NCBI GenBank assembly: GCA_041615815.1
Contig: JBFJCP010000014.1
Span: forward strand, 42,090 to 106,089
Length of the DNA: 64,000 nucleotides
Source: Gemmatimonadales bacterium
GTDB taxonomy: Bacteria; Gemmatimonadota; Gemmatimonadetes; Gemmatimonadales; GWC2-71-9
Reading direction: 5' to 3'
The position numbers and the translations under genes are program-made. This document shows positions 540 to 4,233 of this stretch, one piece after another. How positions within the stretch are numbered: position 1 is the stretch's first letter; each line of letters opens with the position of its first letter. Under the pieces are notes generated by a model. That model worked only from the letters and a program-made list of their open reading frames with translations. It ran no database searches and was not told where the DNA came from.

Positions 540-543
540 CGGG

Positions 544-2160
544 CTACGCAATACATCGCTCAATGAGGTCGTCGTAGCCATCTCGAGTCGGGTCCTGGGG
601 TAGGTGCCGCAGGGTCGTCAGTTCGGCTCGGGCGCGAATGCCCGGTTCGTCGATTCCCGCGAGCGCACCCAGGTGGATCCACGACCCAAGGCGGTCGCAG
701 ACACGTCGCAATAGCAGGGTGTCCTGCTCCTTCAGGCACCGGTCGAACGCCCGGCGATCGGGTCGCAGCCTGCCGGGCTCGAGCCGCTCCTCGAGCTGGG
801 CAAAGAAGCCGTCGTGGAGTCCCAGTCGGAGGGCATCGTTCAGTACCTGCATCCGCAGCGTGTGGTTGGTGCCCTCCCAGTTTTCGAAGACCACATTGTC
901 TCGCAGCAGGCGCGGCAGGACGCTGAAGGTCTCGATGGTGCCGTTGCCTCCCAGAATCTCGATCGCTCGGGTGATGGCATCGTGCGATAGATAGGAGGTC
1001 CGCACCTTGTTGAGGTTGAGACCCATCCGCAGAAAGGCTGTTTCGTCGTCGGGACCCTCACCGCTATCGACGCGCTGCTGGATCTGAGCGAGCCAGAAGG
1101 AACCCGCCAGCGCGGCTTCAGCATCGGCACGGATCATAGCAAGCGTTTCCTTGACCAACGGATAGCGGATGATGGTCTCGCCGAAGGCACGGCGGTGCTC
1201 GGCGTAGCCGCGTGCCACCAGGTAGGCTCGATGCGCGAGGGCCGCGCACGCGAACGCGTTGTAGAGACGGCTGGTGTCGATGATGAGCTCCATGGTATTG
1301 CGGAACCCGCGCTCGAGCGGCCCAAGCTGCTCGGCGTAGGCCCCCTCGAAACCGATCTCGGCCGTCACCATCGAGCGCGTACCCAGCTTGTCCTTCAAGC
1401 GCTTCAGCACGAAGCCGTTCGGCTCGCCACCGATCCGCCGGGGCACGAGAAACAACCCCAGCCCTTTGGTGCCCTCTGCGGCCCCCTCCGGCCGGGCCGT
1501 GACCAAGAACAGGTCCGCATCGGCGCTCGAACAGAACCACTTCTCACCCGTGATGCGCCAGCTGCCACCGGCCTCTCGGTGGGCGACCACGGCGTTGGCC
1601 CCCACGTCCGAGCCCCCCTGCACCTCGGTCAGGAATTGGGCACCCGCACAGTGGTCGCCATACACCGGGGTGAGCAGCCGGGGAAGCCACGCCGCTTTCT
1701 GCTCGTCGGTACCGAGGGACTGAAGAGCCCGAATTGCACCGGCGGTGCACGCTAGCGGGCAGTTGTGGCCACCTTCACCGACGTGAGCCGACAAGTAGAA
1801 GAGGGAGAGGATGAAGGGATGCGGATTGGGGATCGCTGCGTAGGCCGCCATCACCCCGCTCCCATAGATGAGGCTGCCAGCCCGGTGGTAGCTCGGATGG
1901 TGGGCGATTTTGGCCACGTAGCGGCCGATACCGTCGAACGTGTCCAGCACCGGCAGGTTCCCGGCTTGGTTGTTCTCAATGACCGCGGAATCCAGCGGCC
2001 CCGCCGCCACCGCACCAAAAGCCTCGAGGGCCGAACTACGGTTTCCCAGCCCTGCCCTGTCCACCAGCATCTGCAGCAGAGGGTCGGCGTGGTAGAAGTT
2101 TTTTGGCTGCGCCGCCAGCCATTCGCTGAGCGCCCTGCGGCCTTCTTCGACAGCCCTCAT
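544..2160 (-). CDS. Acyl-CoA dehydrogenase (AidB-like)
   Basis: CPLACT, FLTEVQGGSDVG, ITGEKWFCS, RLKDKLGTRS, GGNG and WEGT motifs. Start placed at ATG 2160, 7 nt after a GAGGAG Shine-Dalgarno. Confidence 0.9.
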   Translation of the reverse strand: MRAVEEGRRALSEWLAAQPKNFYHADPLLQMLVDRAGLGNRSSALEAFGAVAAGPLDSAVIENNQAGNLPVLDTFDGIGRYVAKIAHHPSYHRAGSLIYGSGVMAAYAAIPNPHPFILSLFYLSAHVGEGGHNCPLACTAGAIRALQSLGTDEQKAAWLPRLLTPVYGDHCAGAQFLTEVQGGSDVGANAVVAHREAGGSWRITGEKWFCSSADADLFLVTARPEGAAEGTKGLGLFLVPRRIGGEPNGFVLKRLKDKLGTRSMVTAEIGFEGAYAEQLGPLERGFRNTMELIIDTSRLYNAFACAALAHRAYLVARGYAEHRRAFGETIIRYPLVKETLAMIRADAEAALAGSFWLAQIQQRVDSGEGPDDETAFLRMGLNLNKVRTSYLSHDAITRAIEILGGNGTIETFSVLPRLLRDNVVFENWEGTNHTLRMQVLNDALRLGLHDGFFAQLEERLEPGRLRPDRRAFDRCLKEQDTLLLRRVCDRLGSWIHLGALAGIDEPGIRARAELTTLRHLPQDPTRDGYDDLIERCIA

Positions 2161-2289
2161 TGCGGCACTCCTCAAGAAAAACGTCACACGCGAAAAAAAC
2201 GTAACACGGGGGCGTCCGGCACGCCTACCCGGCGCCGCATCCGGTGCCTGGGAATCCCCCTGCCGGGTCGTCGAGCTGCCGGTGGGACG

Positions 2290-2484
2290 CTATTGAAGCG
2301 GCGGCTTGGGGACCAACACCACCCGGCAGCACAGCGGACCGTAGCATTCCCCGAAACAAATGAGACTGCCGAAGATGTAATACGGCTGAAGAAACGATTG
2401 GGCGCGCACAGGACTCGGCATTGCCGACGCGCCGACCGTCAGCGCGAGCATCAACCACGCGTGCTTCACGAAGCGCATGAACAT
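2290..2484 (-). CDS. Small secreted cysteine-rich peptide (64 aa: signal peptide plus ~36 aa mature part with C-x3-C-x4-CC)
   Basis: Strong SD GGAGGAGGT 6 nt before ATG 2484. Sec-type signal MFMRFVKHAWLMLALTVGASAMPSPVRA followed by QSFLQPYYIFGSLICFGECYGPLCCRVVLVPKPPLQ. Confidence 0.72.
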   Translation of the reverse strand: MFMRFVKHAWLMLALTVGASAMPSPVRAQSFLQPYYIFGSLICFGECYGPLCCRVVLVPKPPLQ

Positions 2485-3014
2485 CGCTGAACCTCCTCCG
2501 GTACGAGTGAGCCTTCCGGACAGGCGCACTCCTCATGGCTCATTCCTTGTTGAACGTCGATTGAATCGACGGCGAATCCGACCGGGCGGGCCGCTGGCAC
2601 CCACACGGCAATGACGGTGTCGTGCCGCACCACGTACAGGGCTGGCACGGATGCGCGGCCGAACATCTTGCGGTGCGCCCCGCGGTTCAGCCGACTCACG
2701 CGCGCCACGATGCGTTCGGCCTCGAGGAAGGCTCGGACCCGGTCCTCCCCACGTCCGACGACGACGACTTGAATTGCCGCTTCCATTGGGATGCCGGACC
2801 ATCGACGGAGCGCCCGGCTCGGCGTCCGGCATGTCAGGCAGTCTTGAGCGCGGATCACCCACGTAATGAGCAGCGGGGCCCGCCCGGTGGGACGCAGCAG
2901 CGGTGGGGCTCCATCCCCGACCTCGAGCGAACGGGTGCTTCCACCCCGCCCACACCACGCTACGCCGCCCATTGCTACGACGGCAATGATGAGCCGAGCC
3001 GTCCTACGCGCCAT
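2466..3014 (-). CDS. Membrane-anchored or exported thioredoxin-fold (redoxin-like) protein
   Basis: N-terminal hydrophobic anchor, LEVGDGAP, beta-strand leading into DCLTC (CxxC), and a later SVPALYVV cis-Pro-loop-like segment. Confidence 0.65.
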   Translation of the reverse strand: MARRTARLIIAVVAMGGVAWCGRGGSTRSLEVGDGAPPLLRPTGRAPLLITWVIRAQDCLTCRTPSRALRRWSGIPMEAAIQVVVVGRGEDRVRAFLEAERIVARVSRLNRGAHRKMFGRASVPALYVVRHDTVIAVWVPAARPVGFAVDSIDVQQGMSHEECACPEGSLVPEEVQRCSCAS

Positions 3015-4009
3015 CGGTTTGGAACCATGGCTTCGGGATCCACAAAAACCAGACGGCCGGCGTCATCCACGGCGAGCAACCGTGGGGTATCCTCGACCTC
3101 GAAAAGCCCCCGCCCCCCCAACGTCATCGCCAGGAGATTCCAGCGAACGGTGGAGCCTTCCATGTCGTAGTACTGGAGCAGCAGTGTGTCCCCGCCCGTC
3201 CAAAACACCTCCGAGAGCCGAGAGAACGACTGGAGCCACTGCTGCACGGCTCGGGCATTGACGCGCGGTGGCGGGTCATGGACGTCCCGAAAGTGCCGGG
3301 ACGGGAGGGGAACGCGGCGGTGCTCCGTGCTTCCCAAGCCAAACAGGTGCACGGCCGGATCCGTTGCGAACACGGCGATCACCAGTGAATCGCGCTGCGT
3401 CGCATGGGCGTGACCGACCATCCACACGACACTCGCCAGGCTCGGGCGGACCCGTGGAACCGGAAAGAGGCGTGCTGTGACGGTCTGCTCCCCCGTGTCC
3501 CACACATGGAGGAGCCGAGTGTCCGCTCGGTTTGGACCCCGCCCCATCAGCAACAGGGTTTCTCGATCCAGCCCGACGAAACCATAGAGCGGGATCAACG
3601 ACGTCACGGCGGTCCCGGTGACCTGACCAAGGGAGTCGAAGGTGCTCAGCCGACCGGAGAACTCGCTCACGATCATGGAGCCGTCTGCCAGCAAGCCTGC
3701 CGCCATGGGTGGCGTCGAGAACTCTCCCGGGCCGGTGCCATGAGCGCCGACGGTGCGCGTGAGTGTCCCGTCCAAGCGGTACTGACGTACTTGGTATTCC
3801 TTCATGTCCGCCACCAGGTATCCGCTCGTATCGACGCGGACACGAGGCGAGACATTGATGACCCGCGCGTTTTCTTCGAGCGAGATGGACCGTTCCCACA
3901 CCACCACCTCATCCAAGCGTCGCTCGACCGCCATCGGGCGCTCGCCACCTTGGGTACTACAGGCACCAATGCCCAGCGACACGAGGATGCCGGTCCGGTG
4001 GATGTGCAT
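2975..4009 (-). CDS. Lipoprotein with a 6-bladed beta-propeller (NHL-like)
   Basis: Lipobox-like LGIGAC. YLVADMKEYQVRQYRLDG..TVGAHGTGPGEF repeat pattern is typical of NHL/6-bladed propellers. Start moved to ATG 4009. Confidence 0.75.
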   Translation of the reverse strand: MHIHRTGILVSLGIGACSTQGGERPMAVERRLDEVVVWERSISLEENARVINVSPRVRVDTSGYLVADMKEYQVRQYRLDGTLTRTVGAHGTGPGEFSTPPMAAGLLADGSMIVSEFSGRLSTFDSLGQVTGTAVTSLIPLYGFVGLDRETLLLMGRGPNRADTRLLHVWDTGEQTVTARLFPVPRVRPSLASVVWMVGHAHATQRDSLVIAVFATDPAVHLFGLGSTEHRRVPLPSRHFRDVHDPPPRVNARAVQQWLQSFSRLSEVFWTGGDTLLLQYYDMEGSTVRWNLLAMTLGGRGLFEVEDTPRLLAVDDAGRLVFVDPEAMVPNRWRVGRLGSSLPS

Positions 4010-4233
4010 GCGGCCCGCCCTTGGAAAAGCCGGTGGCAAGCTGCAACGAGAAACCGACGACGGAGTAGGAAAAAACCGCTGTTGTGGACCGGAAAAACGC
4101 GGGGAGGGGAGGCTTGACGTGAGCAATGGGACGGTGAGAAGGTGTGACGGTTGGACGGTGAGGAGTGGCGCTGGCGACTTTCTAACCTTTTGACCTTCCG
4201 GCCGTCACGAACGTCCCGCCTTCCAACTTCTGC

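Follow-up and report, generated by a model that had tools for sequence, protein, structure and literature searches.

A recurrent bacterial gene cassette of a β-propeller lipoprotein, a thioredoxin-fold protein and small cysteine peptides with signal-like leaders

A stretch of 64,000 nucleotides (nt) from an uncultured Gemmatimonadales bacterium (contig JBFJCP010000014.1 of assembly GCA_041615815.1, positions 42,090 to 106,089; hereafter termed the window) harbours three overlapping genes on the minus strand, which encode a predicted β-propeller lipoprotein, a protein of the thioredoxin (Trx) fold with a CxxC motif (the redoxin) and a peptide precursor with four cysteines. This trio almost certainly constitutes a real functional unit: among related genomes such peptides are found nearly exclusively where a propeller gene is accompanied by a redoxin gene. 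We give an even chance to the notion that the lipid-anchored propeller/redoxin pair is a maturation platform, which binds the Cys framework of the Sec-exported peptide and sets or corrects its two disulfides. None of the three cassette parts carries a family name, and no published description of the trio was found in the literature, subscription journals and bioRxiv supplements lying beyond the reach of the search.

A propeller profile was run against 401 genomes of the phylum and matched at least 47 places in 35 genomes at an E-value of 1e-40, the best five candidates per genome being scored. The 46 propeller loci examined comprise all of these except the window, and in 38 of them a redoxin homologue is encoded no more than 2.5 kb away, in the same direction. 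Under a strict peptide filter (hydrophobic N-terminus, 40-110 amino acids, C-x3-C-x3-7-CC), a peptide is present in 27 of the 38 redoxin-bearing loci versus one of the eight redoxin-less loci; in the entire 4.19-Mb host genome the same filter retrieves two open reading frames (ORFs), the window peptide and a TTG-started ORF devoid of a Shine-Dalgarno (SD) sequence. A relaxed filter (ATG start, SD-like word, four or more Cys with a CC pair among them) finds a signal-bearing Cys/CC peptide in 35/38 versus 0/8 loci, on a background of six matches in the host genome, window peptide included, and four in 0.77 Mb of recG loci. On the opposite strand, none of the 46 propeller loci contains a filter-passing peptide.

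Since the filters were shaped after the first loci had been seen, a held-out test was run on 33 loci of weak redoxin-profile matches, which were absent from all alignments (contig ends cut seven of them short); one further match fell on a locus already in the set and was omitted. Seven of the eight held-out loci with a propeller encode a CC peptide and the eighth a two-Cys peptide, compared to 0/25 loci without a propeller, nine of which show an ordinary W-C-x-P-C motif. The original prediction had named in advance, as its own test, the recurrence of small Cys peptides next to homologous propeller/redoxin pairs, and such peptides do recur. Cassettes are present in five family-level groups, and the 35 peptide-bearing loci contain one (24 loci), two (6) or three (5) peptides, such that in 11 of the 35 a single pair is accompanied by two or three dissimilar peptides. 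In one genus-level group (L082, L084, L087, L089, L093, L105, L122) the cassette has a constant location, with nuo/phosphoglucomutase genes on one side and a PIG-L/MacB block on the other, and contains as many as three peptides, which differ in spacing class and keep their order. A pattern-based locus search with the single propeller retrieved nothing from metagenome contigs.

The peptide precursor of the window shows the n-, h- and c-regions of a signal peptide, which were judged by eye here and throughout. The signal-like N-terminus and the putative V26-R27-A28 site of the original prediction are read here as well; the signal peptide would be less clean than claimed, as A19-S20-A21 is a second possible site. 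An AxA-Q-like cleavage site is found in 19 of the 31 aligned strict-filter peptides, the only invariant positions of which are Met1 and the four Cys, the invariance of the latter following from the filter itself. The commonest frameworks are C-x3-C-x4/5/6-CC (30/51 peptides) and C-x4-C-x4-9-CC, even Cys counts predominate, and some peptides have six Cys. Apart from the Cys, the cores are aromatic, hypervariable and not rich in His or Met, and their net charge ranges from -7 to +5. The mature window peptide lacks Trp, and the alignment has no conserved Trp column. Closest to the window core are those of L079 and L085, with non-Cys identities of 0.32 and 0.27, and the propellers of these loci are approximately 30% identical to that of the window. 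As judged from eight close pairs, the peptide genes evolve under purifying selection, the pooled ratio of non-synonymous to synonymous substitution rates (dN/dS) being 0.33 and the same for the core.

No above-noise match to Pfam or NCBIfam was obtained for the 31 peptides, and a sequence search of the PDB with the peptide profile returned only signal-region noise (best E 0.12). The exact 64-residue product occurs, unnamed, on 107 contigs of a predicted-protein collection; gene callers thus do find it, at variance with the expectation that standard annotation would miss the peptide. With regard to a possible N-terminal pyroglutamate, a search of the host genome (95.7% complete) for the type I glutaminyl cyclase alone gave no match.

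Single-sequence searches with the window redoxin retrieve the protein itself and no close relative, and homologues adjoining related propellers are detected by profile. The alignment comprises 36 sequences and leaves out the truncated copies L071, L072 and L081 as well as the near-duplicate L102. Both the CLTC motif and the thioredoxin fold originally ascribed to the middle gene were found, the former in the sequence and the latter in a model (predicted local distance difference test, pLDDT, 76.6), which adopts a TlpA/ResA-like fold with an N-terminal helix, places the CxxC at the start of helix 1 and yields Foldseek matches at E 1e-5 to 1e-3. The redoxin profile matches ResA/StoA-type proteins weakly (best E 0.045), with the CxxC in register with the WCPPC of 3kcm, and the 36 redoxins have no match above noise in Pfam or NCBIfam. 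Within the family motif C-L/V/F-x-C, Cys62 is retained in 36/36 and Cys59 in 34/36 proteins; Arg70 and Arg101 (35/36 each) are better kept than the cis-Pro, a column occupied by Pro in 20/36, and the window copy has both Cys59 and Pro124. The start of the protein is uncertain: the gene caller picks a 168-residue form, while the homologues favour a longer start with Cys21 in 33/36; the lipobox of the window protein is odd in having a Trp before the Cys. Homologues do not share the Cys-rich tail of the redoxin, the part that runs into the peptide gene. In the loci L069 (5042-5560), L080 (4028-4504) and L072, the first Cys is gone (Y-x-x-C, V-x-x-C) and the second is kept, with Cys peptides alongside; the L072 copy is additionally frameshifted. 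A public protein of 482 residues, P0034, joins the propeller to the CxxC domain (probability 98.3%) with no signal in between, and could be a true fusion or an artefact of assembly or readthrough.

The first gene encodes a predicted propeller lipoprotein as had been proposed, given the lipobox-like IGAC that is read at its N-terminus and an AlphaFold2 model (pLDDT 93.5), in which 24 blade strands form six four-stranded blades. Its best fold matches are six-bladed NHL domains, the DUF4221 member BVU_1028 of Bacteroides (Z 22.1, 308 aligned residues, root-mean-square deviation 3.6) and BF0058, likewise of Bacteroides (Z 20.6). Among 1.84 billion cluster representatives 4132 propeller relatives were found at E 0.001 and 157 at 1e-30, and the alignment was built from the window protein and 129 of the best 150, the self match, fragments and long forms being left out. 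DUF5128 (PF17170) is matched by 45 of these 130 family members at E 0.01 (best 2e-8), the window protein itself having no Pfam match. The lipobox Cys17 column is 75% conserved, 116/130 propellers lack any Cys in their final 300 residues, and conserved residues cluster in loops. No conserved metal-ligand set is evident in the alignment, because a single His alone is conserved. A role of the propeller as an enzyme of the peptidyl-amidating-lyase or lactonase type was considered and set aside as improbable on the basis of the model, since the respective Z scores (17-19) are tied with those of non-enzymes and no conserved metal-ligand set is seen. A co-fold of propeller residues 26-340 with mature peptide residues 29-64 scored 0.02 against a mark of 0.32; with the peptide fold itself uncertain, it was not used as evidence. 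The host genome encodes two distant propeller paralogues (G000:C2:75174-76442, E 1e-20; C3:159105-160748, E 1.5e-14), and the genome-wide peptide filters gave no real-looking CC peptide beside either of them.

Identity correlations (Spearman) were computed over 25 complete cassettes, of which the short cores are noisy and the kin non-independent. The propeller correlates with the redoxin at 0.90, and the peptide core correlates with the propeller and the redoxin at only 0.36 and 0.33, respectively; where propellers are less than 60% identical, the non-Cys core identity falls to 0.11-0.15. A role of the propeller as receptor or immunity partner, which had been offered at the outset, is less favoured than shared handling of the peptides, because the propeller tracks the redoxin above the core (0.90 versus 0.36) and one pair often serves two to three dissimilar peptides. 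As far as sequences can tell, propeller and redoxin together are more likely to be a common platform for peptide maturation, and less likely to be a receptor with a single cognate peptide. This reading is based on the near-exclusive occurrence of the peptides with the redoxin, the joint movement of the two partners and the several unlike peptides per pair, and furthermore on the precedents of PedC, MauD and the Trx/propeller cleft of NHLRC2.

According to this scheme, the precursor would cross the inner membrane via Sec, and signal peptidase I would release a core of approximately 36-43 residues. The oxidising power might come from the general DsbA/VKOR pair of the host, the genes of which are adjacent, and the CxxC protein of the cassette would be a dedicated isomerase or holdase, in the way proposed for PedC, for a framework that is hard to fold because two cysteines adjoin. 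The propeller would keep the substrate beside the CxxC protein, as in the propeller/Trx-like cleft of NHLRC2. The pair would recognize the Cys framework rather than side chains, so that several different peptides could be served. Once folded, the peptide itself would be active, presumably as a signal or an antagonistic molecule outside the cytoplasm. A bolder version, possible though on balance doubtful, is that of a split, NHLRC2-like periplasmic propeller/thioredoxin machine, which recognizes the C-C-CC framework only and matures libraries of hypervariable disulfide mini-proteins. Its products would represent an undescribed class of disulfide peptides secreted by bacteria, with a layout shared by Gemmatimonadota and other diderm phyla, and the machine, if real, would assign a function to the large DUF5128-like propeller family and provide a testable model of the ligand of the Trx-propeller cleft.

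Several observations weigh against the maturation platform, the chief weakness of which is that the redoxin, with its variable first Cys and cis-Pro, is atypical for a putative catalytic enzyme. The first Cys is lost in two of the 36 aligned redoxins while their loci keep peptides, and in 4/38 loci (L071, L072, L081, L123) the redoxin gene is truncated or frameshifted. The fold neighbours are mostly reducing enzymes (ResA, CcmG, DsbE) and peroxiredoxin-like proteins, the host has two DsbD_TM genes, and the Trx-like domain of human NHLRC2 showed no insulin-reduction activity (PMC6107167). Fused longer forms beyond P0034 were absent among 7987 candidates, which is weak evidence. Moreover, correlations among kin do not prove co-evolution. 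As 22 of the 35 genomes belong to one family, in which many cassettes share one site by nuo/phosphoglucomutase and MacB genes, the counts overstate independence, and far fewer than 35 independent events lie behind them. Finally, 8/46 propellers, some best-scoring ones included, lack a redoxin, and the propeller can thus stand alone. Several high-scoring propellers (L031, L073, L074, L076-L078, L103, L104) have neither redoxin nor peptide nearby; L031 sits in a run of four propeller genes adjoining an efflux gene, and L074, like L075, adjoins mobile-element-like genes.

Alternatively, the secreted peptide might be a signal or an antibacterial agent, the propeller its cognate receptor or immunity lipoprotein and the CxxC protein no more than a folding aid, a reading that we consider unlikely. 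It would account for the loop-clustered conserved residues of the lipoprotein propeller, for the variability of the peptides, for the location of cassettes at many sites, some by integrase or transposase genes (4/31 loci), and for the orphan propellers in 8/46 loci, which recall orphan immunity or eavesdropping genes; PedC also provides a precedent. Yet, a single propeller with two to three dissimilar peptides in 11/35 loci, and its closer tracking of the redoxin than of the peptide, are not what a one-to-one partner would suggest, and the dN/dS of 0.33 does not point to diversifying selection between closely related peptides. The span of core net charges from -7 to +5 likewise argues against it, as does the survey of 121 neighbours in 31 loci, in which no sensor, regulator or dedicated exporter was conserved. 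That unrelated exported genes merely adjoin by chance, or that the small ORF is spurious, has a practically negligible probability: the recG-dehydratase interval does accept many unrelated insertions, and single-sequence searches find no close homologue of the window redoxin or peptide, but the recurrence counts with their controls, the purifying selection and the profile-level homology of all three parts speak against chance, which is refuted by the co-occurrence.

Two further explanations dispense with disulfide setting by the redoxin. In the one, to which we attach a quite low probability, the CxxC protein is a structural or single-cysteine partner, and the three products form one periplasmic or surface complex with the peptide as a small exchangeable subunit, comparable to methylamine dehydrogenase or to the redox module of NHLRC2/SOQ1. 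Methylamine dehydrogenase joins a propeller to a small disulfide-rich subunit. Cys62 as the sole invariant CxxC cysteine, the conservation of Arg70 and Arg101 above the cis-Pro, the peroxiredoxin-like folds at ranks 2-5 of the fold search and the fusion P0034 are in agreement with such a complex, and in SOQ1 the Trx domain reportedly hands electrons to a partner domain (10.1101/2024.11.01.621559). However, the peptides have no conserved residue except Cys, a tryptophan-quinone cofactor is excluded for the window copy because its mature peptide lacks Trp, and neither MauE in the host nor a conserved metal-ligand set in the propeller (one His) is found. The other explanation, which appears improbable to a still greater degree, is a periplasmic metal-binding peptide. 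A TlpA/ResA-type reductase supplied by DsbD/CcdA would keep its four thiols reduced, and the propeller would be a scaffold or a partner for metal hand-over. A C-x3-C plus a CC pair is able to chelate metals, the fold neighbours of the redoxin are reducing TlpA/ResA/CcmG proteins, and two DsbD_TM genes are at hand; moreover, the bufferins, Sec-exported Cys peptides, bind copper (PMC11626156). On the other hand, no MNIO gene was found in the 95.7% complete host genome or among the 121 neighbours, no metal-resistance or TonB-receptor gene recurs nearby (one MerR and two resistance-nodulation-division pumps in 31 loci), His and Met do not abound in the cores, which are aromatic and hypervariable, and two to three divergent paralogues per locus are unexpected for a simple chelator.

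The cassette appears to lie outside class II bacteriocin operons, mau clusters, bufferins, NHLRC2/SOQ1 and NVEALA systems, and would work in the manner of systems in which a disulfide peptide is secreted with a thiol-disulfide partner of its own. Pediocin-type peptides have a double-glycine leader, and a YGNGV-type motif is typical of class IIa bacteriocins. The cassette peptides lack the latter and have a signal-like hydrophobic leader; furthermore, the cassette has an obligate propeller partner and a diderm host, and no peptidase-ABC (C39-ABC) exporter is found among the 121 neighbours. The class IIa operons share with it a dedicated CxxC accessory gene beside that of the peptide, here in 35/38 loci, and would also share the small exported peptide with disulfides. 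PedC of the pediocin PA-1 system is a secreted CxxC protein of the thioredoxin fold, for which a role in setting the peptide disulfides is proposed (PMC4919988).

NHLRC2 and SOQ1 resemble the cassette in combining Trx-like and six-bladed NHL folds (propellers align at Z 18.4-18.6), and a fused form, P0034, exists here as well. In NHLRC2 the propeller and the Trx-like domain form one cleft, and its bacterial homologues reportedly have no conserved neighbours (PMC6107167), whereas the cassette pair travels with peptides. The cassette usually encodes two separate predicted lipoproteins, propeller first (P0034 has the reversed domain order), its motif is CLTC/CLGC rather than CC(I/V)NC (CCINC in NHLRC2), and the propeller identity is only 13-14%, with Z scores tied with many unrelated propellers. 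Methylamine dehydrogenase has a propeller partner. The mau cluster (MauA, MauB, MauD, MauE) likewise combines a dedicated CxxC protein with a small disulfide-rich periplasmic protein, for which MauD is required (10.64898/2026.03.05.709764). In contrast, the cassette host has no MauE match, the cassette propeller is six-bladed, and the peptides are hypervariable, multiple and devoid of the conserved Trp pair for tryptophan tryptophylquinone. Bufferins, too, arise from small precursors that contain Cys and carry a Sec signal peptide, the latter being predicted for the cassette peptides, yet require MNIO (DUF692, PF05114) and a DUF2063 partner (PMC11626156), and no MNIO was found in the host genome or among the cassette neighbours.

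In Bacteroidota, propellers of the DUF5128/DUF4221/BF3164 type are found with NVEALA peptides, and these loci may have the same gene layout. The propeller family is akin to them, as indicated by DUF5128 in 45/130 relatives and by BVU_1028 and BF0058 as top structural matches. The peptides differ in their Cys framework, 0/31 matching NVEALA (PF14055) at E 0.1; a genome-wide search with PF14055 gave no signal, its controls being equally silent. The NVEALA system is itself uncharacterised, the term not being found in the literature searched.

Sec-exported bacterial disulfide peptides with folding partners of their own have been little described, and the cassette, with its three defined genes, lends itself to expression in a laboratory host. 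Cassettes would amount to a natural library of compact two-disulfide scaffolds, suggest a candidate function for a propeller family of at least 157 close clusters at 50% identity, and offer a simple system, in bacteria, in which to study the Trx-plus-NHL arrangement of human NHLRC2 and its ligand. More distant propellers (L036, L037, L183) lie by small signal-bearing peptides with two to four Cys and no CC pair, which suggests putative sister systems with other frameworks.

The three ORFs of the cassette, all on the minus strand, are arranged as originally described, lying downstream of recG (6345-4234) and followed by the gene for an AidB-like acyl-CoA dehydrogenase (2187-544) (Table 1). The propeller and redoxin genes overlap by 40 nt and the redoxin and peptide genes by 19 nt; the SD sequence, already rated as strong, is located 6 nt upstream of the peptide ATG, and the mature part with its C-x3-C-x4-CC spacing reads exactly as first written. 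None of the three window proteins has an above-noise match in Pfam or NCBIfam. The G+C content at third codon positions is alike in the cassette genes (0.72-0.78) and their flanking genes (0.74-0.80). A contig of run X5 from another study spans 817-4008 with zero differences to the window, and runs X6 and X7 of two further studies include parts of the region; the cassette DNA is no assembly artefact, because runs of three other studies contain all or part of it.

Table 1. Positions of the cassette features within the window
Feature	Position	Strand	Basis or remark
Six-bladed NHL/DUF5128-like β-propeller, predicted lipoprotein, 344 amino acids	2975..4009	minus	model, lipobox-like IGAC at Cys17
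TlpA/ResA-like thioredoxin-fold protein, N-terminal anchor or lipoprotein signal, 182 amino acids (start uncertain)	2466..3014	minus	
CLTC motif (Cys59-Cys62) of the redoxin	2829..2840	minus	alignment of 36 homologues
Shine-Dalgarno sequence GGAGGAGGT of the peptide gene, within the redoxin 3' end	2491..2499	minus	
Peptide precursor, 64 amino acids, signal-peptide-like N-terminus	2290..2484	minus	
C-x3-C-x4-CC core, Cys43, 47, 52, 53	2326..2358	minus	peptide alignment
Block of acyl-CoA dehydrogenase and cassette, inserted between recG and the gene for pterin carbinolamine dehydratase	540..4233		context, no conserved system part

In both genomes of the same genus recG ends less than 100 nt from the pterin dehydratase gene, and the dehydrogenase and the cassette therefore form a 3.7-kb insertion. 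The dehydratase gene lies at most 300 nt from recG in 13 of the 73 relatives with enough sequence, and the recG-dehydratase gap (540-4233 in the window; L114, L115, L188-L267) is an insertion hotspot in Gemmatimonadales, ranging from 0 to more than 4 kb. Near this gap L222, L224 and L226 encode a different, distant propeller in the absence of a redoxin. As none of 80 relatives has the cassette redoxin or the AidB-like dehydrogenase next to recG, a functional link of the cassette to either flanking gene was rejected. The dehydrogenase gene was co-inserted with the cassette and does not adjoin it in 31 other loci scanned.

Up to 520 amino acids of each of 121 proteins encoded around 31 cassette loci were surveyed; no fourth component recurs across lineages, and neither a conserved sensor, regulator or dedicated exporter nor a C39-ABC family is among them. 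Integrase or transposase genes flank 4/31 loci, and genes for extracytoplasmic function sigma factors 3/31. Searches of the host genome gave no match to DsbB, MauE or MNIO. In the recG-propeller intergenic stretch (4030-4230), where no sigma-70-like promoter was found, the minus strand is pyrimidine-rich and contains short CCGTC/CACC repeats.

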